Positions 1 through 25,089 of a DNA stretch of 64,000 bases are shown in pieces. The notes below the pieces were generated by a model. That model ran no database searches. It saw nothing but the letters and a program-made list of their open reading frames with translations, and had not been told where the DNA came from. The stretch is from NCBI GenBank assembly GCA_022791455.1, contig JAAVZC010000014.1:209119-273118 (forward strand), read 5' to 3'. This stretch comes from Eggerthellaceae bacterium (GTDB taxonomy: Bacteria > Actinomycetota > Coriobacteriia > Coriobacteriales > Eggerthellaceae). The number at the start of each line of letters is the position of its first letter. Within the stretch, counting starts at the first letter, position 1. A program made the translations under genes and the position numbers.

Positions 1-304
1 CGGGATGGTACAGCGCCAGCATGGAAGACTGGGACTTGGCGCAGCAGTGGCCGCGGCTGTGAGCGTTGGACTCGTCGCCCTCCACCTTGATGACCTTCTC
101 GTCTTGCACGGTAACCCAAACACCGCACTCGACCTTGCCGCAAGCGCGGCAGCAGGAACGTATACGCTTGACTTCACCGGCATTCTCGTCGGTACCCTCA
201 GCCATGGCCGTGGACGGCACAGCCGCAAAAGACAGCGTAGAAGCAGCCGCGGTGATGGCAGCCGCCTTAACGAAGTTACGACGAGTGAGTGAAAGTTTCG
301 CCAT
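1..304 (-). CDS. Tat-exported molybdopterin (bis-MGD) oxidoreductase, Dadh/catechol-dehydroxylase-like, N-terminal part only (runs off window)
   Basis: Translated by hand (not in ORF track): MAKLSLTRRNFVKAAA...AMAEG...RSCCRACGKVECGVWVTVQDEKVIKVEGDESNAHSRGHCCAKSQSSMLALYHP. Twin-arginine signal, Fe-S motif, GGAGG RBS; same N-terminus as paralogs at 20239 and 39957. Confidence 0.9.
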   Translation of the reverse strand, partial: MAKLSLTRRNFVKAAAITAAASTLSFAAVPSTAMAEGTDENAGEVKRIRSCCRACGKVECGVWVTVQDEKVIKVEGDESNAHSRGHCCAKSQSSMLALYHP

Positions 305-444: not shown

Positions 445-478
445 ATTCTAGGAAGCGAAAGCGGCGCGAAATCATAAG
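445..478 (-). promoter_or_regulatory. Putative promoter of the first molybdoenzyme: CTTATGATTTC motif, 17 nt, TAGAAT (-10)
   Basis: Same 11-mer and 17-nt spacing to a -10-like hexamer as upstream of the paralog starting at 23160. Confidence 0.55.
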
Positions 479-609
479 GGCAGGTTGAATGCGGCGTTTT
501 TATCATCCTCCCCCTCATCCCCGCGGGGTTATTTCGCCGAATTTGGCGCTTCTATACTTGGAAACACGAGAAGAGGAAAAAGCCAACCGAGTTACTAGGG
601 AGGACTACC

Positions 610-1569
610 ATGGCTGAACCGCGTCCCTCATTGCTGCTCATTCTGGACATCGACGAGCGCATCGCCACCCACGAGACGAAGCTGGAGCTGAACCGCTGCT
701 TCGCCTTTATGAGCGCCCTCATTCGCACCCACGCCCCCGAAGACGGGCTGCCCGCGTTTGTGGGCGACGCACCGGAGGGCGATGAGCTGCCGGTGGTGAA
801 CACCGCGAAGTGCGTGCTGAAGATGGGCACGAAGAAGTACCTGTACTCCACCGACGAGGGCGCCGACGAGCGCTGGGAGAAGTCCGGCATCGAGAAGTGG
901 TTCTACAACCAGTTCTATAAGCTGGGCAACAACATGAAGATCTTCAACCGCCGTCAGCGCGAGATTGGCGCGACGGAGGTGAACTTCACCTGGCTGGTAG
1001 TGGACCTGGAGAACGGGGCGCTGGAACTGGCGCTGCACCTAGATTCCAACTCCGACATTCCCGCCGAGACCGCGCGTGTTGTGGCCGCCGTTCGCGCGGC
1101 GCTGAACGACGGCACGCTGGGCGAGGGCGCTGTGGCCCGCATTTCCGCCCCCACCGCCGCGTCGTATGCCGCCCAGCACGAGGCGGGCCTGGTGGCAAAG
1201 GCGGAGCGCGAGGCAGCCGCTGCTGCCGAGGCCGCTGCCGCCGCCGAGGCCGCCGCTGCCGAAGCGGCTGCCGCCGAGGCGCTGGCCGACGAGCTGTTCT
1301 TGGAGTCGCCGGCGCTAGTTGCCCAAGCGCAAAACGCTGTCGATGATGCGCAGGATGATGTCGTGACCTGCGAAAACGCCTCTGAGGATGATGGCACTGC
1401 CGCGGCGGACGGTGTCGCGGATGATGAAGAAATCGTTCAAGGCGAGGACTTTGCCGCCCGCTTCGAACTCCCGGAAGCCGACTTTGCGCTAGACTATTCT
1501 CAGTGGGATGTCGAATATCGGGACGGCACCACCGCTGTCTACAATCTTGCCGAGCGCGCGCTCGCCTAA
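610..1569 (+). CDS. Hypothetical acidic protein with (EAAAAA)n helical linker
   Basis: 319-aa ORF, GGAGG RBS, GC3-rich codon usage, 18 bp before the helicase-like gene. Confidence 0.8.
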   Translation: MAEPRPSLLLILDIDERIATHETKLELNRCFAFMSALIRTHAPEDGLPAFVGDAPEGDELPVVNTAKCVLKMGTKKYLYSTDEGADERWEKSGIEKWFYNQFYKLGNNMKIFNRRQREIGATEVNFTWLVVDLENGALELALHLDSNSDIPAETARVVAAVRAALNDGTLGEGAVARISAPTAASYAAQHEAGLVAKAEREAAAAAEAAAAAEAAAAEAAAAEALADELFLESPALVAQAQNAVDDAQDDVVTCENASEDDGTAAADGVADDEEIVQGEDFAARFELPEADFALDYSQWDVEYRDGTTAVYNLAERALA

Positions 1570-1587
1570 GACGAAGAGGGAACCAAC

Positions 1588-3519
1588 ATGATCGAAGAAA
1601 TCGCCGTTTGCGACGAGCGCCTGGTGAAGATCTCCGGCGCCGCCAGCACTGGTAAAACCGAGGCGCTCGTGGCGCGCGCCGTTCAGCTCATCCGCACCGG
1701 GTGCGACCCGTCCGCCATTTTGATGGTGGCCTCCACCACCTTCGGCGCCCAGGCGCTGCGGGATCGGCTGCGCGCGGCGCTGGGCGAAGAGGCGTCCGCT
1801 GCCGACGAGGTGGCCGTGACCACCGCCCTCAACGCCGCCGTGGCAGTGCTGGACACGCCGGCCGCCCGCGAGGCCACCGGCCGCACTCCGCGCCTTCTGG
1901 CCAACTTCGAGTATAACTTCTTCATCGAGGACATGAAGACCACCGGGCAGTCCCGCCGCCAGCTGAAGAACGTCATGGCGCTGTTCGACCGCCGCTGGTG
2001 CGACTACGACACTTCCGAGGACTGGCTGGTCCCCGGCGAGCAGACGGTGGCGTGGGAGCGTGCCCAGGAAGTGCTGAACGCGCTTCAGGCCATGCTTCCC
2101 AACGAGGCCCCCTATGTGGCCGCCCGCTTCCTGCAGGAGAACCCCGCCGCCCGCGAGCAGTGCGGCTTCCAGGTGGTGCTGGCCGACGACTTCCAGAACC
2201 TCTCCCATGCGCAACAGACGCTCGTGTGCCTGCTGGCGAACCGCCAGGTGATGGTGGCCGGCAACGGCGACGAAGTGGTGGCCTGCGCCACTCCCCTTCC
2301 CCATCCGGCTGGGTTTTCCCAGTTCGAAGCGGTGCGCAACGGCGTGAAGTGCTTCGCGCTGAACACCGCCTTCAACAACGTGAAGGCCACGGCATTCGCT
2401 GACGCGCTGGCAGTGGCCGGTTTCGGGCCCGACGCTCTGACTGCCGAGACGCGCGAGGGCAGCGCCGACGACATCACCCTGGTGAAGTGGAATCTGGCGG
2501 AGGACGAGTTCAACGACCTGACCAAGTACCTGCGCGCGCTCATCGCCGATAAGGAGATCGAGGAGAGCCGCATGTGCGTGGTGGTGCCCAACAAGCGCTG
2601 GGCCCGTACCATGCAGCAGACGCTTTCCAAGCGCGGCATCAAGACCTCTGCCGACGGCGCCTTCCCCGGCCTGGTGGGCGACCCGCGCGACGCCGCCCGT
2701 GCGCAGGCGCTCATTGCGTTCACCAAGCTGAACCTGCTGGCAGACCCCGAAGACGTGGTGGCGTGGCGCGCCTGGTGCGGCTACGGCCAGCAGCTGACCC
2801 ATTCCGACACCTGGGGCCGCCTGGTGGAATACGCCCGTCAGCAGGGATTGGGCGTGATCGAGGCCATGGCCGCTACCGCCGATGCCGTTGCCGCTGGTCA
2901 GGAGCCGTTCCTGAAGGCGCAGCTGATTGCCAACCGCTACACCCAGGGCCGCGAGTTCATCGAGAAGAACAGCCGCCGCAAGGGCTTCGGCCTGACCCGC
3001 GCCGCGGGGCTGGACGGCCTGCGCGACTTCAAGGGCACGCTGGACACCCTGGCGGGCGACGAGGACGCTGCCACCGTGTACGCCGTGCTGCGCAACAAGG
3101 AAATGAACCCCACCTTCACCGAGGGGGCGCACATCCTGCGCATCTCCTCTTACGAGAACATGGTGGGCTGCAACTACGACTACGTGGTGCTAGCCGGTTG
3201 CGTGGACGGCCTGATGCCGGCGCGCGACGCCTTCGAGGTGGTCTCGACCGACGAGGACCGCAAGCGCGTCATGGACGCCGAGCGCTGCCTGTTCGCTGGC
3301 GCGGCGGCGAAGGCCGGGGTTGAGCTGATGCTCTCCACGTTCTCGCGCGCCCAGCTGGAGCTGGCGGAGAAGACCAAGATGCAGGTGACCCGCGTGCGCT
3401 CCGACGGCGACGACCGCATCGCCATCCTGCGCCCCACCACCTTCATTAGCGAAGCACGCAGCGCCGCCCCAAGCACCATCGGCGGCCAAGCCCTGCTCGC
3501 GAAGTACGACCTGGCGTAA
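1588..3519 (+). CDS. UvrD/Rep (SF1) helicase-like protein with degenerate catalytic motifs
   Basis: Walker A GAASTGKT; motif II-like VLADDFQN; motif V-like YENMVGCNYDYVVLAG; motif VI-like AERCLF. Confidence 0.8.
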   Translation: MIEEIAVCDERLVKISGAASTGKTEALVARAVQLIRTGCDPSAILMVASTTFGAQALRDRLRAALGEEASAADEVAVTTALNAAVAVLDTPAAREATGRTPRLLANFEYNFFIEDMKTTGQSRRQLKNVMALFDRRWCDYDTSEDWLVPGEQTVAWERAQEVLNALQAMLPNEAPYVAARFLQENPAAREQCGFQVVLADDFQNLSHAQQTLVCLLANRQVMVAGNGDEVVACATPLPHPAGFSQFEAVRNGVKCFALNTAFNNVKATAFADALAVAGFGPDALTAETREGSADDITLVKWNLAEDEFNDLTKYLRALIADKEIEESRMCVVVPNKRWARTMQQTLSKRGIKTSADGAFPGLVGDPRDAARAQALIAFTKLNLLADPEDVVAWRAWCGYGQQLTHSDTWGRLVEYARQQGLGVIEAMAATADAVAAGQEPFLKAQLIANRYTQGREFIEKNSRRKGFGLTRAAGLDGLRDFKGTLDTLAGDEDAATVYAVLRNKEMNPTFTEGAHILRISSYENMVGCNYDYVVLAGCVDGLMPARDAFEVVSTDEDRKRVMDAERCLFAGAAAKAGVELMLSTFSRAQLELAEKTKMQVTRVRSDGDDRIAILRPTTFISEARSAAPSTIGGQALLAKYDLA

Positions 3520-6361: not shown

Positions 6362-6380
6362 CCCACATGAACGATGTGGG
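6362..6380. promoter_or_regulatory. 19-bp palindrome, candidate operator between the reductase and its divergent TM-LuxR
   Basis: CCCACAT-GAACG-ATGTGGG. Confidence 0.45.
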
Positions 6381-6453: not shown

Positions 6454-7896
6454 ATGGGTCAACAGGCACCGCGCCGCGAAGGCGCGCCCAACCGCATTCT
6501 GCTTGCGACGGTGGCGGTCGCGGGGATGATGTTCATGTTCCTGAGCACCAACGACGCCATCTTCCCCACCGTGGCGCTCTATTACCCCTTCCTGCGAGAG
6601 GCGGCCACGGTGGTGGCGGTGGTCGTGGCCGCTATCTTGGTAGCTATTTCCTACCGGGCTCCGCAACTGCTCAATTGCCGGGCGTGGAACATCGCCGCGC
6701 TAGCGTCCTGCGTTCTTTACGCTCTTTGCTGCTGGTGGGGCGTCGAGGAGCGCAGCCTTTTTCTGCTGACAGTGGGCACTTTCTGCGACTCGATTGCAGA
6801 GACGTGGTTCTTCGTGCTGGTATGCACAGCGTTCGCCCGGCTAAACCGCGATGAACAGCCGGTGGTGGCGTGCGCGGCGTGCCTCATCTCCTATGCGCTC
6901 GGGTTCTTCCTCGCCGGCAGCGAGTTTTCGGTCATGCTGGCGCTGAACGCTTTGTGCCTTGGCCTTATTTTCGCCACCTCGTGGCCCCTGGCGAAACCCA
7001 CGCTGCAAGCCATTGCCGCCTCTTCACCCCAGAAAGAGATGGCGGTGGCCAACCCGTCGTCATTTTTGTCCTTCGGCCACTTTATCTTCCTGGCCATCCT
7101 GATGTTCGGGTTCACCGAGGGGACGTCGCTTGCGCTCGCCGAGAACCCCGAGGGGCTGCCCACGCCCTTTTTGGCGGTCGTCACGCTTCTGGCGCTGCTC
7201 ATTGTTCCCATGCTGACGAGAAGATCCCTTAACCCCGATTTCCTGTTCTCGCTGTGCGCCATTTTGGCACTGGGGGGCATTTTCCTCATTCCTGCAGAAC
7301 TGGGGTCGGCCAGCTTCGGCATCGCAACGGCCACCTCGCTGCTCGATGCCAGCTACGCCTGCTTCAACCTGCTGCTTCTTCTGGTGATCGGCAGCGTTAT
7401 CGCCCGAAACCCGCTGGCGGCAGTAAGCACCTCTGCCCTTGCGGTGGGGCTGCTGTGGCTGGGGATCGCCCTGGGCGCGGGACTCGGCAACACCGCCCTC
7501 GCCCTCCTGGGAGAGAACGGGCCGGTCATCACCGCGCTTAGCCTGGCGCTCATCTTGGCGTTCGGCGCATTCTGCTTCGCCGTGCTGAAGTTCTGTGATT
7601 TTACGGCGGCCATCAACGACATTCGAACGCCGCAGCCGCTTCAACCGCCCCGCACGGCCGAGCCCACCACCCGCGAGCGAGTGGCGCAGGTGGCCGAGGA
7701 ATTCGGCCTCACCAAGCGCGAGGAAGAGGTGTGCGAGCTGCTAGCCAGCGGCCGCAGCGCCAGCGTGATATGCGAGCGGCTGAGCATTTCCCTGAACACC
7801 ACCCGCTATCACGCGAAGAACATCTACGCGAAACTGGGCGTGCACTCCCAACAAGAACTCATCGACCTAGTGGAATCAGAACCGACAACCAGGTAG
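6454..7896 (+). CDS. Multi-transmembrane LuxR-family transcriptional regulator
   Basis: Long series of hydrophobic helices, then C-terminal LTKREEEVCELLASG...NTTRYHAKNIYAKLGVHSQQEL HTH; divergent from the reductase. Confidence 0.92.
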   Translation: MGQQAPRREGAPNRILLATVAVAGMMFMFLSTNDAIFPTVALYYPFLREAATVVAVVVAAILVAISYRAPQLLNCRAWNIAALASCVLYALCCWWGVEERSLFLLTVGTFCDSIAETWFFVLVCTAFARLNRDEQPVVACAACLISYALGFFLAGSEFSVMLALNALCLGLIFATSWPLAKPTLQAIAASSPQKEMAVANPSSFLSFGHFIFLAILMFGFTEGTSLALAENPEGLPTPFLAVVTLLALLIVPMLTRRSLNPDFLFSLCAILALGGIFLIPAELGSASFGIATATSLLDASYACFNLLLLLVIGSVIARNPLAAVSTSALAVGLLWLGIALGAGLGNTALALLGENGPVITALSLALILAFGAFCFAVLKFCDFTAAINDIRTPQPLQPPRTAEPTTRERVAQVAEEFGLTKREEEVCELLASGRSASVICERLSISLNTTRYHAKNIYAKLGVHSQQELIDLVESEPTTR

Positions 7897-12493: not shown

Positions 12494-14365
12494 CTACAGC
12501 TCTACTGAGTTGACGAGTTTCATGAGGTCGCTTTGGTTGTGGACGTCTACTTTGCGGTAGATGTGGCGGATGTGGGTTTTCGCGGTGCCCTCGGAGATGA
12601 ACAGCTTCTCCTGGATGTAGGTGCTCTTGAAGCCGCGGGCCAGGTAGAACAGCACCTCAGTCTCGCGGCGGGAGAGCATGAAGGTATCCGCCACCGCTTC
12701 GCACTTCTTCCTGAAGCGGCCCACCTTGGCCTCGCCATCGCCCTCCGGATGGGCCGCGCGGGGCTACTCCATGGCCAGACGCGCCGCCGAAGGGGTCGGG
12801 GTCGAAGCCGGACGGTCGGAAGCCGGCTCCGAAACGCTAGGCGCACCCGCCGCTGCAGTCCCACCCTGCAAGTCAGCACTCGCATCCGGCACCGCCGCAG
12901 TCGCCAAGCCTGCCGCGAACCCAGCGCCGGCCGCTGCGGCCATCTGACGGCGCACGGCCGCTTCTTCTTCGTCATCCAGAAGGCCGGCCACCAGGCTGCC
13001 CGCCTCTGCATCTCCGCCATCGATGCCAATCACCGCATCTCGCTGCGCCTCGGTCAGGCGCTGGGCGGCCGCCGCAGAAAACTCCTGATCGAGTTCCCGC
13101 CGCGCGGACTCCACCTCGGCGCGCATCTTCGGGTTCATGCGCACCAGGTTGCGAATTTCCTTCTCGTCCGGCAGCGGCGAAAACGCGAACATCATCATGA
13201 CCACCAGCAGCAGAATCACAATGCCGGAGCCAAACGACGACTCCGCCACCACGCCATTGCTCAAAATGGGCAACAGCGACCCCGCCAAAGCACCCAGGCC
13301 CAACAGGCCGCGACCCAGACCGTACACGAACACGGCCGGCAGGCGGAAACGCTCGGACAGCTGCCCGAAGAAGATCCACATCATGGCCTCGAAGGTCATG
13401 TAGCCCATCAGCAGAATGCCCGTGGCCCACACCGAATCGCTCCCCGACGCCACCGGAATGAACAGCGCCGTAATGGCAATGAACGGAATGAGCGGCCGGA
13501 AGAAGCTGTGCAGGGGCGCGTTGTCCCCCATCACCAGGAACACCGTCAGCAGGAGCAGCGTGGCGAAGAACGCCGTCACGAACATGAAAGAAAGATCGCT
13601 GGCCGTGGCGCCCGTGAACACCGACGACACCGACGACTGCCGCATAATGCCCAGCGCGAAACCCAGAAACAGCACCGGCAGCCCGAAGCGCATCACGAAC
13701 CCGGATACGTTAATGGGCAGCGCCGAGCTGAGCACGCCGTTGGGGCCGTCTTGGGGCCGCGTGGTCTTCAAGCGGTAGAGCATGGCCGCCTCTGCCAGCG
13801 GAATCGCCGCCGAAATAGTGGCGCCCACTGGGTACGGCAACTGATGGATGACATAGGAGTAAATGGCGAAGCCCACCATAATGGCCAGCGCGCCGTTGAT
13901 GGCGATGGTGGTACCCTCGCGGTTCGAGAACGCCACGCCCCACGCCAGCAGCAGCATGGTGGAGCCAACACCGGTCAAAAGGCCGGAAATCGCCTGGATC
14001 CACGCGGACAGCGGACCAGCTTCCGGCGGAATCAGCAGCAGCGTGCCGATACACGTGACAATCGCGCAGGTCACCAACGTGGAGGTGCGCCACATAAGGT
14101 TCGCCGCGCGCGAAGCCATGGAAGCGCACACCAGAAGCAGCAGGCTATAGACAATAATCGAAACGATGTAGGCCAGGCTCATGCCCTCGTTAAAGAAGCC
14201 GAACCCCACCGGCGCAATGCCGAAAACCGACCCATCGTCGAACATGGTGCTGTAGATCCAGGCCTGGTGCATGCCGTAACCCACCGACATGAGCCCCAAT
14301 TTACCAATGGCCTGGTGGTTGCCCCACTCCACTTTAACCATGACGCGTGGCGAACTAACCTTCAT
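12494..14365 (-). pseudogene. Multi-TM LuxR regulator interrupted by one in-frame TAG before the HTH
   Basis: ORFs 12764-14365 and 12494-12724 are in the same frame and read ...RLAME*PRAAHPEGDGEAKVGRFRKKC...LSRRETEVL. Confidence 0.85.
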
Positions 14366-14531
14366 TCACTCACCCTCCGTTTTGCTCGTCAATGTGCGGC
14401 GAGCATCCTCTTCCTTGCGGGAAGAGACTACCCCTTAGCGCCGTCATCTTATCATACGGAGCGGATGATTCCGCGGCCGTTGCCGCAGGTGGGAATGGGA
14501 AGCGAGGAGGTCAGCTTTGCCCTGAACTGGG

Positions 14532-19341: not shown

Positions 19342-19473
19342 GATGTGCTCCTCACTGGACGGGCCTCTCCGTTGGGCCAAGGTGGCAAATAAGTTGGCGA
19401 AACCAAAGTACGCCGGCTTTGTTTCGAAGTGTTTTCAAGGCAGGAAACACTCTATGTCATCGGCGAAGCTGCA

Positions 19474-19521
19474 GGCGGCACGGCTGCTACCATGCGACAA
19501 AAAGCCGAAGCGAAAGGCGCG
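19474..19521 (+). repeat. 48-bp segment duplicated at 25042-25089
   Basis: 46/48 identical by eye; contains a TGcTAYCAT extended -10-like box and GAAAGG. Confidence 0.85.
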
Positions 19522-19620: not shown

Positions 19621-20235
19621 TTATTCGCCGCCCTGCCAGGTGTGGTTGCGCACGATGTACACGAACGACGGCTTGTTGCCCACGTCCGGCAGACGGTGCA
19701 GGTCCGCTTCCGTGTAAGGCTCGCAGAAGCTGTCGATGGTCTCGCCGCGCGCGCCGCGGAACGAGCCAATGCCCTCGTCCAAGTCGCCGAACCACTTCGC
19801 CATGCCCACGCAATTGGACACGCACTGGGGCAGCTCGCCCTGGGCAATCTGCTGCTCGCAGAGGGTGCATTTCTCCACCACGCGCTCCTCTTCGTTGAGG
19901 TAGCGCACGCCATAGGGGCAGGCCATGGCGCAGAATTGGCAGCCGATGCACTTCTCTTTGTCAATCTGCACCGTTCCGTCGGCACGCTTGTGGCTGGCCT
20001 CGGTGGGGCACACATTCACGCAGGCAGGCTCTTCGCAGTGCTGGCACTGCACCGGCAGGTAGTAGAAGTCGTTCGCCGGCTTCTCGCCGCCATCAAGCGC
20101 CTCGTTGGGGCCGATGCGCAGCACCTTATTCCAGAAGCTGCCGATGGGCACGTTGTTCACCATTTTGCAGGCGCCATTGCAGGCCATGCAGGCCACGCAG
20201 CGGTTGACGTCGACCGCAATTGAGTAACGGGCCAT
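19621..20235 (-). CDS. 4Fe-4S electron-transfer subunit (DmsB-like)
   Basis: CVACMAC, CQHCEEPAC, CIGCQFCAMAC, CTLC motifs. Confidence 0.95.
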   Translation of the reverse strand: MARYSIAVDVNRCVACMACNGACKMVNNVPIGSFWNKVLRIGPNEALDGGEKPANDFYYLPVQCQHCEEPACVNVCPTEASHKRADGTVQIDKEKCIGCQFCAMACPYGVRYLNEEERVVEKCTLCEQQIAQGELPQCVSNCVGMAKWFGDLDEGIGSFRGARGETIDSFCEPYTEADLHRLPDVGNKPSFVYIVRNHTWQGGE

Positions 20236-20238
20236 GGG

Positions 20239-23160
20239 TTATGCCCTCCCTTCGTAAACGGGCTGCCAAGCCTTCAGGCGCGGGTCGGACGAGTCGGCGA
20301 TGATGCCCTCCGGGCAGCCCTCTTCGGCCTTGTACACCTTCACGGGGTAGCCGCGTACAATGGACGAGCCGCAGTGGGGGTCGTCGATGTCGTTGTTGAC
20401 CAGCTGATTCACTGCCGAGTAGCGCCATCCGTGCTCGGGGGCGGGGCACTCGGGGAACCACCAGGTGTGCTCGCAGTTAATCACACCGCGCGGCACGCCG
20501 TAGAACAGGTCGGCGGTTTCGCGAATCTTGCCGTGGGGGCTTTCGATCCACACCCAATCGCCCTGGGCGATGCCCCATTCAGCGGCGTCGTCGGGATTGA
20601 TCTCCACGCGCGGCACCGGCCACACTTCGCGGCACCACGGCAGCTGGCGATGCTCGGAATGGAAGTACACCGGAATGCGGCGGCCGGTCAGGCACATGAC
20701 CGGGTACTCGTTCCACAGCTCGGGGTTGCGGTCCTTGCTGTCGGGGTTGGGGCGATAGTCCGGCAGGGCGTCTTCGGCACCGTGGTAGGTCTCCATGATG
20801 GTGCACCAGATTTCCTGCTTCTGGGTGGGGGTGTTGAAGCCGGGGATGACGTTCTGCGGCGTGGGGGCCTCGGTGTAGGACTTCTTCAGGAAGCCGGTCT
20901 GGTAGCGGCGATAGGTGCCCCAGTCGTCCGGACGCAGCTTCTTCACGTCCCACCAGCCGTTTTGCTGGAACTCTTCCACATACGCCTCCCACGAGGGCGA
21001 CACTTCGCGCACCACGTAGTCCAGCTTCTCCTCCAACGTCGGATAAGGATTGTCCTCATCCCAGCCCCAAGGCAGGCCAACGCGGCGGTACAGCTCTTCC
21101 ACGATCTCCGGGTCGTACCAGGCCTCGGCCAGCGGCTCTACGCAGGGCACGCAGGCTCCCAGGGCGCCGCCGGAACCCTGGCTCTGGCGCGGGGTGGGCA
21201 CTTCCAGCCAATGGCGGCAGGGCAGGATGATGTCGGCCAGCTCAGAGGTGGGGTGATGCCACAGGTCGATGTCGAAGAAGAAGTCCAGCTGCTTCAGGCA
21301 CTCCCACGCCATGGTGGTGTTGCCCATGTTCATGAAGTCACCGGACTGGCACACGCCGCCCTTGATGGGGTACGGGTCTCCCGTCACGCCCGCCTTCCAG
21401 ATGTCGTTGGCGTTCGCCCACAGGCCCCACCACTCGAACAGCGGATGGGTGTCGCGGCCCAGCTGCTTCTCCATGATCTCCGGGTGAGCCAGCGGGGAAT
21501 CCAGGGTCTTGCTGTAGGACTGATCGGAGAAGTTGCCCATGTAGTTGACGTCGATCTTCGTGGAGCCGCGCTGACCGCCGGGGCCATCGGTGTTGCCGGT
21601 AATGGCGGTCAGAAGCTCGATGGCGCGGCAGTTCATGATGGAGTTGCCGTGGTGCTCCACCGCCAGCTGGAACAGGATGCCGCCGTTGCCCCAACGGGGG
21701 TCGTTGCGGGTGCCGTAAGCCAGGGCCGCGTCGGTGACCAGCTGGGCGTCGACGCCGGTGATCTCCTGCGACTTCTCCGGCGCGTACTGGTCGCAGCGCT
21801 CGGCGAACTTCTGCCAAACGGGAACGGCAATGTGCTTGCTGCCGTCCTTGAACGTCACCTCAAACTCGCCTTCGATAGCCGGGTCGATGGACTCGAACTC
21901 ATCGGGGTTGGGCAGCCACGCCTGAGAATGGCCCTCGCGCACGTTGGCTTCGCCCTCGATCCCGGCGAAGGTGCGGCGCGACCACTCGTCCTTGTGGCCC
22001 TCGCCGCTGTAGCGCGTCCAGGGGGTCTCTCCTTCCCAGCAGTTGCACTCCGGATCGGCCGCGGGATCGTAGGTGGGGTCGACCGCCGCGAGCTGGCCCG
22101 TCGCGTTGAACCACTTCAGCGACTGGGAGGCGTTGTCCCACACCATGTACTTGAACGGGCTGCCGTCCTCCTGCAAATCCGCCTGAGTGAGCAGGGTGGT
22201 CTTGACGAAGTTCGGGCCGTGGAAAATGTGCGGAGCATCGGGGCCAGAGGGCTCCTTGTCCTCTGCCACCAGGAAGCAGGCGTTGGTCCAGCGCTTCACG
22301 AAGCCCCAGTCCACCAGGTCGTTCTTGATCACCACATCGCACATGGCCAGCGCCAGCGCCGTGTCGGTGCCGCCGCGCAGCGCCAGATGGTAGTCGGCCT
22401 CTTTACCAAGGGCCGTAGTGCGCGGGTCAACAGAGATGAATGTGTCGGCCGAGAACACCTCGTCGGTCACCGAGCGGCCGGCCTCGTCGTAGTTGGAAAC
22501 TTCCGGCGTAGAGGCCCAAATGGTGAACACCGACGGCCGCTCCACCGAAGCGGACCAACTGTGGTTGTACTCGGAAGTGAGCGCCGAGGAGAAGTGGCGC
22601 GGGCCCTTGCACACCTGCCAGGCTACCGAGGTGTTGGGGGTCATGAACCAAGCACCGTAGCCGGCATAAGGGGACATGCACCAAATGCGGCCGGTACCGC
22701 CCATGGTGAACAGCGCTTCCCCGCCGTACTTCGCCTGCACCTGGCCGATGCCGGTGACGATGGAATCCAGCGCCTCTTCCCAGTCGATGCGCACCCAACC
22801 GGGGTCCTCGCCCTTGGGGTTCGTGCGCTTCATAGGGTAAGCCAGACGATCCGGGTGATAACAAGCCTGCAGCGAGGCCACCGACTTGTTGCAGCAGCTG
22901 CCCATCGAATGGGGAGCCGTGTCGTCGCCCTCAATCTTCACGGCGCGACCGTTCTCCACGGTCACCCACACGCCGCATTCCATTTTGCCGCAACCACGGC
23001 AGCAGCTGCGAATGCGCCGCACGGTGCCCGCGCTGTCCGCGGCGGTGTAGGGCTCGGCCGCCAGGGCCGCCGCCTGAGTTGCGCCCGCCACTCCCATGGC
23101 GGCGCCGGTGACTGCTGCAGCCTTTAAGAAAGACCTTCGCGAAAGCTTCAATGCAGTCAT
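20239..23160 (-). CDS. Tat-exported bis-MGD molybdoenzyme, catechol dehydroxylase (Dadh)-like catalytic subunit
   Basis: LSRRSFLK signal; RSCCRGCGKMECG; WQVCKGPRH; C-terminal TGRRIPVYFHSEHRQLPWCRE; ends YEGRA. Confidence 0.9.
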   Translation of the reverse strand: MTALKLSRRSFLKAAAVTGAAMGVAGATQAAALAAEPYTAADSAGTVRRIRSCCRGCGKMECGVWVTVENGRAVKIEGDDTAPHSMGSCCNKSVASLQACYHPDRLAYPMKRTNPKGEDPGWVRIDWEEALDSIVTGIGQVQAKYGGEALFTMGGTGRIWCMSPYAGYGAWFMTPNTSVAWQVCKGPRHFSSALTSEYNHSWSASVERPSVFTIWASTPEVSNYDEAGRSVTDEVFSADTFISVDPRTTALGKEADYHLALRGGTDTALALAMCDVVIKNDLVDWGFVKRWTNACFLVAEDKEPSGPDAPHIFHGPNFVKTTLLTQADLQEDGSPFKYMVWDNASQSLKWFNATGQLAAVDPTYDPAADPECNCWEGETPWTRYSGEGHKDEWSRRTFAGIEGEANVREGHSQAWLPNPDEFESIDPAIEGEFEVTFKDGSKHIAVPVWQKFAERCDQYAPEKSQEITGVDAQLVTDAALAYGTRNDPRWGNGGILFQLAVEHHGNSIMNCRAIELLTAITGNTDGPGGQRGSTKIDVNYMGNFSDQSYSKTLDSPLAHPEIMEKQLGRDTHPLFEWWGLWANANDIWKAGVTGDPYPIKGGVCQSGDFMNMGNTTMAWECLKQLDFFFDIDLWHHPTSELADIILPCRHWLEVPTPRQSQGSGGALGACVPCVEPLAEAWYDPEIVEELYRRVGLPWGWDEDNPYPTLEEKLDYVVREVSPSWEAYVEEFQQNGWWDVKKLRPDDWGTYRRYQTGFLKKSYTEAPTPQNVIPGFNTPTQKQEIWCTIMETYHGAEDALPDYRPNPDSKDRNPELWNEYPVMCLTGRRIPVYFHSEHRQLPWCREVWPVPRVEINPDDAAEWGIAQGDWVWIESPHGKIRETADLFYGVPRGVINCEHTWWFPECPAPEHGWRYSAVNQLVNNDIDDPHCGSSIVRGYPVKVYKAEEGCPEGIIADSSDPRLKAWQPVYEGRA

Positions 23161-23294
23161 TCCTCCTCCTTCCCTTTTGGAACGGATCTCTCGTCCCGTT
23201 CCCCAAACACGGGGAAAGCCCTGCGGTTTCGCTATGGGCTTTCCGCTTGGCGCGAAATATAGGAGGACGGCAGGGGTGTCCACATCGTAAAATC

Positions 23295-23339
23295 AATATG
23301 AACTTGGGAGGAGTGGGGAAATCATAAGTCACTTATGAT
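23295..23339 (-). promoter_or_regulatory. 19-bp palindromic operator plus -10-like hexamer between the molybdoenzyme and its TM-LuxR
   Basis: ATCATAAGT-C-ACTTATGAT (23321-23339); on the minus strand CTTATGATTTC, 17 nt, CATATT. Confidence 0.65.
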
Positions 23340-23404
23340 GCTTCATAAACGCAGTTCGCCCACAATGAATCCGCGAGGGTTTTTCCAGTTCAGGGGGTTA
23401 TGAT

Positions 23405-24973
23405 ATGGCGCTTTCAGTGGCACGAATTGCGGGGTTCTCGTTTTTGCGCAGCTGGATGGGAGTACTGTTCTTCAGTTCGTCTTTGTTCATGGCATACAAC
23501 CCGGCCATGCGCTGGGAAGTAGAGAACAGCGTATTCGTCTCGTCGCTCATCGCGCTTACGATTTCCCTGTTTGCGTGCGCGCTGTTGCACCGGACAGTCA
23601 TGGGAGCGCTGAACAGCCGCTACGGATTTCTCGCTGGCCCCACATTCACGGCGGTAGGGGTTCTTCTGCTGCTGCCGTCGCTGCACGGCGGTACGGCCAT
23701 CGAACCGGCGGTCCTGGGGGCGAGCGCCGTGCTGACCGGATTTGGCTCCTGCCTGGTGCTGTTGGACGTGGGCCGCAGCTACGCATCTACCCAGCGGCGC
23801 ACGTGCTTGGTTGAGGTGCTGCTGGGCACCGCCATCGGTTCGCTTCTGCCCCTGGCCGCCAGCCTCCTGCCCGTAGATGCCGGCTGCATTGCCGCTGTTG
23901 CCATGATGCTGGCGGCGGGCATTTGCGCCCATGAGGCCAATCTCAGCAGCAAAGACGAGCCGCGGGGCAACCGCGTGCTGGGCGAAGTGCTTCCCGCCAC
24001 CACGTTGGGGCGGCTGATAAGCGGCGCATTCGTGCTCGGGTTCGCCACCGGCCTCATTCGTTACCTGTACTCCCCCACCACCGAGACGGCCTCCTTCAAC
24101 GAATCGGCCATCTGGTTCTTCGTCTTCTCTGCCGTCGTGTGCCTGGCGCTTGTAATTCCCGCCGCCCGCAGCCGCCAATGCAGCATGACCCCCTACTATC
24201 GCCTGGTCATCGTGTTGTGCACCGCCGGGTTCGCCCTTGTGCCGGTGTTTGAAATGTCCTCGGCGCTGCCGCACCTCATCTTCACGGTGGGCTATGCCCT
24301 TTTCGAGGTGCTGGCGTGGGTAATCATGGCCGAGCTGGCCCATCGCTTCCAGTACACCTCAGTGCAGGTGTTCGGCATTGGCCGCATTTTGGTGGTAGAG
24401 ATTGGCGTTATCGCCGGTGTGGTGCTATTCCCTTCACTGGGAGTTCAGGGGGTGGAAGCACGTTTGCTGGTGACGATATCGGTGGTTTCGGTCATCCTCA
24501 TCACGGTGGTTTCCCATTACGTGCTGCGGGCGCAGGACATCCGCCAGCTGGAGGATGTGCCGGGGTCGGCCCCGACGGAAGCTGAGGGAGGCGCCGCGGA
24601 AGGGACTCCAGGGGTTGTCGGGGAGTCCCCGGGAGCCGCCGATGCCGCACGCCTTGCCCCTCGTGAAGACGGCAACACCGGCGCGCCAGCCTTCAAGGGC
24701 TCGCCACGCATTCCGCTTCTGGAGCGCTGCCGCATTGTAGGGGCGTATTACGGCCTGACCGAGCGCGAGGTGGACGTCATGCACCTCTTCGCCACCGGTC
24801 GCACCGCCGCCCGCGTGCAGGAGGAGCTGGTCATTTCCGCCGGTACCGTGAACACCCACGCCATGCACATCTACCAGAAGATGGATATCCACTCTCGCCA
24901 AGAACTCATGGAACTGGTGGCCACCGCCAACCTGGACGAGATGACCCGCGAAGCGAGCCACGGGGAGCGCTAG
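23405..24973 (+). CDS. Multi-transmembrane LuxR-family regulator
   Basis: Hydrophobic N-terminal domain; LTEREVDVMHLFATG...GTVNTHAMHIYQKMDIHSRQEL. Confidence 0.92.
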   Translation: MALSVARIAGFSFLRSWMGVLFFSSSLFMAYNPAMRWEVENSVFVSSLIALTISLFACALLHRTVMGALNSRYGFLAGPTFTAVGVLLLLPSLHGGTAIEPAVLGASAVLTGFGSCLVLLDVGRSYASTQRRTCLVEVLLGTAIGSLLPLAASLLPVDAGCIAAVAMMLAAGICAHEANLSSKDEPRGNRVLGEVLPATTLGRLISGAFVLGFATGLIRYLYSPTTETASFNESAIWFFVFSAVVCLALVIPAARSRQCSMTPYYRLVIVLCTAGFALVPVFEMSSALPHLIFTVGYALFEVLAWVIMAELAHRFQYTSVQVFGIGRILVVEIGVIAGVVLFPSLGVQGVEARLLVTISVVSVILITVVSHYVLRAQDIRQLEDVPGSAPTEAEGGAAEGTPGVVGESPGAADAARLAPREDGNTGAPAFKGSPRIPLLERCRIVGAYYGLTEREVDVMHLFATGRTAARVQEELVISAGTVNTHAMHIYQKMDIHSRQELMELVATANLDEMTREASHGER

Positions 24974-25041
24974 GTTAATTTCGCCGTCCTTTTCGAGCCG
25001 ATTTCAAAGGGGGAACACTCCGCGTTGCTGGAGAAGCGGCG

Positions 25042-25089
25042 GGCGGCACGGCTGCTATCATGCGACAAAAAGCCGAAGTGAAAGGCGCG
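25042..25089 (+). promoter_or_regulatory. Putative promoter/5' UTR of the ferredoxin gene, duplicated at 19474
   Basis: TGC-TATCAT extended -10-like box and GAAAGG RBS just before the ATG at 25094. Confidence 0.55.

Follow-up and report, generated by a model that had tools for sequence, protein, structure and literature searches.

Two Eggerthellaceae reductase promoters that share an 11-mer probably belong to separate modules built on one plan, each with its own membrane LuxR-type regulator

The genome analysed here belongs to the Eggerthellaceae, has a size of 2.6 Mb and a G+C content of 62%, and harbors 52 genes for molybdopterin catalytic subunits and about 40 LuxR-type genes. The window, the whole stretch of 64,000 nucleotides that was analysed (G000:C5:209119-273118), contains two reductase genes, designated A and B, whose products are only ~37% identical, together with the following neighbors:

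1-304, minus strand: 5' end of the reductase A gene, which extends past the window and encodes a molybdopterin oxidoreductase (1192 aa, Tat-exported)
610-3519, plus strand: divergent partners of reductase A, encoding a 319-aa protein (610-1569) and a UvrD-like protein (1588-3519)
12494-14365, minus strand: LuxR-A, a conserved membrane LuxR with a GerE HTH, linked to reductase A
19621-23160, minus strand: reductase B (20239-23160; 973 aa, Tat-exported) and its 4Fe-4S subunit (19621-20235)
23405-24973, plus strand: LuxR-B, in which ~10 hydrophobic segments precede a C-terminal GerE HTH whose recognition helix is SAGTVNTHAMHIYQKM

Further along, the reductase A operon encodes an Fe-S subunit, a DmsC-like anchor, a protein without assigned function and a NapH-like protein, and orthologues of reductase A with 79-98% identity are found in about 24 genera. 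In each of the four other genera that were checked, the divergent 319-aa/UvrD-like gene pair is syntenic with reductase A. Confined to the Eggerthellaceae/Coriobacteriia, the 319-aa protein has a confidently predicted fold (pLDDT 86), for which no PDB fold match better than E 0.08 was obtained. As it has neither a recognised DNA-binding domain nor a Pfam or NCBIfam match, it was rejected as a DNA-binding factor.

Reductase B and its Fe-S subunit are transcribed divergently from the LuxR-B gene. Two 79-nt direct repeats, which are 84% identical and lie 5568 bp apart (19443-19521 and 25011-25089), bracket exactly the block of Fe-S subunit, reductase B and LuxR-B. This suggests that the block was inserted as a cassette, recent by its look, and the flanking repeats fit its patchy distribution. 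Pfam GerE was assigned to residues 451-503 of LuxR-B, and sequence matches of the HTH in the PDB were obtained to DNA-binding domains of the NarL, GerE, DesR and LiaR types, including the NarL-DNA structure 1JE8. Membrane segments were counted by a hydropathy scan, which gave 9-11 segments at or above 1.6 in both LuxR-A and LuxR-B. An Rfam search of the long leaders (positions 1-26000) revealed no riboswitch or other known RNA.

The 11-mer CTTATGATTTC is present on the minus strand at 468-478 and at 23318-23328, where it begins 174 nt before the start codon of reductase A (304) and 168 nt before that of reductase B (23160), confirming that it lies upstream of both genes, as an earlier note on this DNA had reported. 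After a gap of 17 nt comes TAGAAT (450 to 445) at the first copy and CATATT (23300 to 23295) at the second. The 11-mer itself occurs exactly twice in the 2.6-Mb genome against ~0.27 copies expected, and none of 100 shuffles of the window reached the observed count. In contrast, the 8-mer ATCATAAG was not enriched in the genome (22 seen, 24 expected), and upstream of the other 50 molybdoenzyme genes the motif was absent (up to two mismatches, same orientation) apart from weak CTTATGAC variants, so that it was rejected as a general reductase motif. Furthermore, some 11-mer is common to 145 of the 1326 pairs that can be formed from the 52 molybdoenzyme upstream regions of this genome. The pairwise match statistic was therefore discarded, since with such frequent sharing and an unenriched 8-mer the 11-mer match alone is weak evidence. 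Alignment of the reductase A and reductase B upstream regions revealed no similarity beyond an 11-12-mer, which ruled out a duplicated promoter as the origin of the two sites. That both sites are real follows instead from their conservation in orthologous loci, and the consensus YTTATGATT is common to the reductase A and reductase B orthologue sets.

The region between reductase B and luxR-B contains the following elements, of which the -10 hexamers and transcription starts, here and at reductase A, are predictions:

23256-23261, minus strand: predicted -10 of reductase B, TATATT, with a start near 23249; TATAGT, TACTAT and TATAGT in orthologues
23281-23287, minus strand: proximal heptamer CGATGTG, 19 nt before this better -10
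23295-23302, minus strand: probable further half-site TTCATATT, which includes CATATT; orthologues carry TTCATAA or CTCATAA at +25 to +28
23321-23339, both strands: predicted LuxR-B operator, ATCATAAGT-C-ACTTATGAT, a perfect 9-1-9 inverted repeat
23342-23349, plus strand: additional half-site TTCATAAA, 21 bp after the first arm; kept in G024 (ATCATAAA) and weaker in G027
23362-23367, plus strand: predicted -10 of the luxR-B promoter, CACAAT, with a start near 23374; conserved block CCCACAATG / CATAAT in four orthologues

The palindrome, with the 11-mer forming part of it here and only a half-site being present at 468-478, was found as the earlier note had described it. Its centre falls at about -44 when counted for the predicted luxR-B promoter and at about -81 for the one predicted at reductase B. 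LuxR-B orthologues were detected in three of 201 family genomes, and a fourth was located by pattern search. Beside orthologues of 69%, 42% and ~36% identity (G024, G027 and G286, respectively) the palindrome is preserved between diverging flanks, and next to LuxR-B and its orthologues it takes the forms ATCATAAGTCACTTATGAT, ATCATAAACGCTTTATGAT, ATCATAAGGGCCTTATGAT and ATCATAAACCCTTTATGAT, with the consensus ATCATAAR-N3-YTTATGAT. When 339 family genomes were searched for ATCATAA-N5-TTATGAT, eight contained a match, every one of which extends to an 8-3-8 form, and the reversed control gave none. Four of the eight sites belong to the reductase B/LuxR-B orthologue pairs, three neighbor further genes for reductases and membrane LuxR proteins, and the remaining one has no reductase or LuxR neighbor. 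The three non-orthologous regulators are only 25-34% identical to LuxR-B, and in all seven palindrome-linked regulators the recognition helix begins with GT(V/L/A)N(T/S)H, a signature whose N-(T/S)-H part occurs in only two of the ~40 LuxR proteins of the present genome. As the palindrome is conserved beside LuxR-B orthologues and recurs with the same helix signature, it is very probably the operator of LuxR-B, and the proposal that the LuxR encoded at 23405 binds here thus gains support. The nearest LuxR-B paralogue in the genome has the helix GTINAH and a similar, imperfect palindrome, TTAATAAG-TTG-CTTATGAC, in its divergent region.

The second half of the shared architecture, a -10 hexamer 17 nt after each 11-mer, did not stand for reductase B. 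In the orthologues CATATT is replaced by CATAAC, CATAAG or CATAAA at a spacing of 20-23 nt, so that the final T is missing and the distance varies. The order of conserved blocks in the four reductase B regions is the palindrome, TTCATAw at +25 to +28, nGATGyG at +40 to +43 and TAnnnT, the last lying 39 nt downstream of CATATT and at +66 to +68 from the heptamer; nGATGyG precedes it by 18-19 nt in all four. The CATATT segment is therefore more likely another, TCATAA-like half-site than a -10 element. By position, the counterpart of the reductase A 11-mer in module B is CGATGTG and not the palindrome arm. Since the predicted leaders differ in length (~134 nt for reductase A, ~89 nt for reductase B), the similar distance of the two 11-mers to the start codons would be a coincidence.

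Upstream of reductase A the following elements were recognised:

445-450, minus strand: predicted -10 of reductase A, TAGAAT, with a start near 438 and a 5' UTR of ~134 nt
468-478, minus strand: proximal heptamer TTATGAT (477 to 471) within CTTATGATTTC, centred near -36 of the predicted start
502-508, minus strand: GGATGAT, repeating the heptamer core in direct orientation, with the proximal ATGAT 31 bp downstream
514-532, both strands: distal imperfect 7-5-7 palindrome, CTCATCC-ccgcg-GGGTTAT on the plus strand
553-558, plus strand: predicted -10 of the divergent promoter, TATACT, 20 nt after the arm GGGTTAT, with a start near 565; it would serve 610-1569 and 1588-3519

All 29 promoters of reductase A orthologues that were examined, from many Eggerthellaceae genera, contain the heptamer (TTATGAT in 25, TTATGAC in three and TTCTGAT in one), and in all of them a TAnnnT hexamer such as TAGAAT, TACAAT, TATCAT or TAAACT follows after exactly 20 nt. 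At reductase A the hexamer proposed earlier is thus upheld, this constancy making it a convincing -10 candidate. In every one of the 25 promoters with an exact TTATGAT, GGATGAT was found 31-33 bp upstream. Beyond it lies the inverted partner AAAT(A/C)ATCC, and the two together form the palindrome AT(A/C)ATCC-N5-GGATGAT, of which 514-532 is a degenerate local form; its centre lies at about -85 of the reductase A promoter and, seen from the predicted divergent promoter, at about -42. The TATACT hexamer of the latter is kept in the orthologue alignment, where it appears as AGTATAG on the other strand. The three TTATGAC promoters come from one genus (g37), in which the reductase A promoter lies much further upstream.

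The leaders of one genus (L017, L019 and L023, all reductase A upstream regions) are very long, with the promoter module ~290 nt from the start codon, and hold a palindrome of their own, ACATCG-N7-CGATGT. In one genome of this genus tandem repeats of ~30 nt are inserted in the leader.

Most genomes with the conserved reductase A heptamer have no LuxR-B orthologue, so that its conservation cannot stem from LuxR-B. The suggestion that 468-478 depends on LuxR-B is hard to uphold given a heptamer present in 29 of 29 orthologues and a regulator confined to three of 201 genomes. By this distribution, the site is part of a separate regulatory module that is older than the B palindrome.

The earlier note had also pointed out that reductase A has no adjacent regulator on its 5' side. 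LuxR-A, encoded further away, is conserved, linked to the reductase and preceded by a palindrome of the same type:

14451-14469, both strands: operator-like palindrome upstream of LuxR-A, ATCATCC-GCTCC-GTATGAT on the minus strand, 7-5-7

AT(A/C)ATCC-N5-GGATGAT was detected in 30 of 201 genomes (reversed control 0), usually twice on one contig, with one copy in the reductase A promoter and the other 5-20 kb away upstream of a membrane LuxR gene; upstream of 17 orthologous LuxR-A genes it lies at a distance of 145-196 nt. Regulators of this type have the recognition helix SEGTAKTHIRHIY. Of 201 genomes, 92 contain LuxR-A relatives (E<=1e-80), mostly one copy each, and in ~25 genomes such a relative and reductase A are found on the same contig 5-20 kb apart (12 kb here). 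In three genomes, including the present one, the right arm of the LuxR-A gene's own operator reads GTATGAT, one base from TTATGAT; this arm was recorded in two other genera and also in the same-genus genome. As the same palindrome type occurs at the reductase A and LuxR-A promoters and the two genes are linked, reductase A most likely has its own regulator, LuxR-A, and the simplest reading of the 11-mer at 468-478 is that of a proximal LuxR-A half-site. Another LuxR with an N-S-H helix (contig C10, 303440-305119) was rejected as the conserved regulator of reductase A, as it was found only in the genus of the present genome.

In the present assembly LuxR-A contains an in-frame TAG at 12764-12766 (codon 534), 14 codons before the HTH. 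The orthologue from the same genus has CAG (Gln) at this position and is intact with 612 aa. The TAG may reflect an error of the assembly, a polymorphism or a genuine nonsense mutation, and given its position before the HTH, LuxR-A may be inactive in this assembly.

Taken together, the two copies of the 11-mer fairly probably mark two separate modules on one plan, each of which would be read by its own LuxR-type activator. The sequences, how they are conserved and spaced, and the linkage of the genes were observed directly. In this explanation the transcription starts, activation and the pairing of protein and site are what we infer, the pairing from conservation, linkage and the correlation between helix and site. 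LuxR-A and LuxR-B are paralogues of the type with 10-12 transmembrane segments. A LuxR-B dimer would bind ATCATAAR-N3-YTTATGAT, which at ~44 bp before the predicted luxR-B start would amount to autoregulation and at ~81 bp before the predicted reductase B start would serve the reductase. LuxR-A would read AT(A/C)ATCC-N5-GGATGAT, at about -42 for the 319-aa/UvrD-like operon and about -85 for reductase A, and additionally the lone TTATGAT within the 11-mer, exactly 20 nt before the reductase A -10. Relative to the predicted starts the geometry of A and B is alike, with the palindrome at -85 and -81, the heptamer at -36 and -35, and the palindrome as seen from the divergent promoter at -42 and -44, respectively. 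The half-sites of both regulators would have the core ATGAT(TT) in common and differ mainly in the two preceding bases (GG or GT in one, TT in the other). The identity of the 11-mers is accounted for by the related specificity of paralogous regulators and not by one common regulator, and the exact match over 11 nt would be partly luck. Several observations count against this explanation, among them the in-frame TAG in LuxR-A, the distant TTATGAC promoter of g37 and the different palindrome found beside the similar helix GTARTH. In addition, 25 of 29 reductase A promoters show TTATGAT as their proximal heptamer and none shows the GG form of the LuxR-A palindromes; formally the heptamer is a LuxR-B-type arm, and the explanation does not account for its conserved TT.

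Alternatively, LuxR-B would act in trans. It would then bind its own palindrome and the half-site 468-478, co-regulating reductase A and possibly replacing the truncated LuxR-A, whose in-frame TAG is in line with such a substitution. Over 11 nt the half-site agrees exactly with that arm of the LuxR-B palindrome which faces the reductase, no third copy exists in the genome, and YTTATGATT is the consensus of both orthologue sets. Nevertheless, we consider this unlikely, and the two sites can be explained without it. The heptamer is conserved in genomes without LuxR-B, and a single arm, with only three of eight bases matching at the position of the partner, would suit a GerE-type dimer poorly. 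There is, moreover, a dedicated regulator that is linked to reductase A and has a matching palindrome, the B module looks recently inserted between its 79-nt repeats, and the two systems do not travel together, as G024, a genome of the same genus, has LuxR-B while no reductase A orthologue was found in it.

With a similarly low probability, the ATGAT-type heptamers ~20 nt before the -10 might be an element for another conserved factor, the LuxR proteins using the palindromes only. An alternative sigma factor or RNA-polymerase-associated protein, a global anaerobic regulator or the 319-aa/UvrD-like pair would be candidates. The arrangement of heptamer, 19-20 nt and TAnnnT does recur, being present at the promoters predicted for reductase A, reductase B and the divergent operon. 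In addition, the half-site that forms the proximal heptamer at A stands alone, and the 319-aa/UvrD-like genes always adjoin reductase A. However, the heptamer agrees in sequence with the LuxR palindrome arms, TTATGATT is found at no other intergenic, promoter-like, reductase-linked place in the genome, and the 319-aa protein has, as described above, no recognised DNA-binding domain and no PDB, Pfam or NCBIfam match.

A variant that we regard as decidedly doubtful is an operator code of the Eggerthellaceae membrane LuxR proteins of the form ATCAT(xx)-N5-(xx)ATGAT, in which the two inner bases on each arm, together with one or two residues of the recognition helix (Asn vs Lys after GT-V/A), would pick the paralogue. 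A hybrid TT arm at the reductase A promoter would then admit a second regulator such as LuxR-B, which in this genome, with its interrupted LuxR-A, would have taken over a reductase that belongs to the core of the family. Mere coincidence, with one or both sites being without function, is highly improbable, for although 11-mers common to 145 of 1326 upstream pairs and an 8-mer unenriched in the genome would leave room for it, both sites are conserved across genera while their surroundings are not, which excludes non-function.

Exact copies of ATCAT-N9-ATGAT are limited to two in the genome, one upstream of luxR-B and one upstream of luxR-A. With up to one mismatch, eight intergenic sites were obtained, four of them within 110 bp upstream of membrane LuxR genes; one of the one-mismatch sites, ATCATGA-N5-GCATGAG, adjoins the LuxR whose HTH is closest to that of LuxR-B. 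Other reductase promoters carry unrelated palindromes. The LuxR adjoining the closest reductase A paralogue has a similar helix (GTARTH) and a different palindrome, so that the code from helix to site is not simple. A palindrome scan over all prokaryote genomes was uninformative, the matches listed being from unrelated AT-rich genomes.

Several further sites were noted in passing. One-mismatch palindromes resembling ATCAT-N9-ATGAT lie at C10:408101-408119, 105 nt upstream of a membrane LuxR gene, and at C5:141695-141713, 18 nt before the crude ORF start of another; the former region also contains a separate AT-rich palindrome with 17-bp arms, 79 nt before a reductase start. In the window, the palindrome CCACAT-GAACG-ATGTGG (6364-6380) is unique in the genome and is located between a divergent flavin reductase gene (start ~6219) and a membrane LuxR gene (6455-7896), where it is likely a further operator. 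The 9-mer ACGATGTGG, common to this palindrome and the reductase B promoter, has 44 copies in the genome and was dismissed as not meaningful. Finally, AAAATAGAATAA is found 213-244 nt upstream of four shorter molybdoenzyme genes (C5:154422, C12:37874, C11:26685 and C10:517202); two of these upstream regions share longer stretches, and the four may represent a separate regulon or a repeat.

Gut Eggerthellaceae encode dozens of molybdenum reductases (52 here) and dozens of membrane LuxR proteins, mostly without assigned substrates. The 12-TM LuxR proteins DadR, HcdR and CadR of Eggerthella lenta activate neighboring catechol dehydroxylase genes, and DadR may also regulate itself (Dong et al., 2022, PMC9734109). 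That study established the activators and gives no DNA binding sites or operators for them, and a literature search found no later description of operators for such membrane LuxR proteins. The present analysis provides conserved candidate operators for two membrane LuxR proteins and suggests a common 7-5-7 layout and promoter architecture for both modules. It also assigns the 'orphan' reductase A operon, present in ~24 genera, to a specific candidate regulator kilobases away. With these candidate operators reporter design, regulon prediction and the discovery of substrates by induction screens become directly testable. LuxR-type regulators that act locally through palindromic operators are nothing unusual, and the result is groundwork rather than a surprise.

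DadR, HcdR and CadR resemble LuxR-A and LuxR-B in their polytopic N-terminal domain and C-terminal GerE HTH, and in being encoded beside or near operons for Tat-exported molybdopterin reductases. The autoregulation suggested for DadR has its likeness in the palindromes, predicted operators, within the LuxR-A and LuxR-B genes' own promoters. LuxR-B adjoins reductase B in divergent orientation. LuxR-A is linked to reductase A and not adjacent to it, and unlike the neighbor-acting E. lenta regulators it lies 5-20 kb from its presumed target, beyond two conserved genes.

In class II activation by LuxR and TraR, the lux box or tra box is an inverted repeat of ~20 bp centred near -42. The sites described here are likewise inverted repeats, of 19 bp, at a predicted -42 to -44 of one of the two divergent promoters, and the HTH is of the same GerE/NarL family. 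Unlike LuxR and TraR, the present regulators are embedded in the membrane and are not known to bind acyl-homoserine lactones; and unlike the lux and tra boxes, the present palindromes also lie ~81-85 bp from a second promoter that carries an extra proximal heptamer. The NarL and NarP sites of Escherichia coli are 7-2-7 inverted repeats and single heptamers in various arrangements. LuxR-A and LuxR-B differ from NarL/NarP in having neither a receiver domain nor phosphorylation, and their sites differ in the spacing of the arms (7-5-7 instead of 7-2-7) and in the heptamer (nnATGAT vs TACYYMT). In common with NarL/NarP, they have the same HTH fold and 7-bp half-sites, which are used in inverted pairs and also singly, the single heptamers being placed at a set distance in the vicinity of the -35 region.
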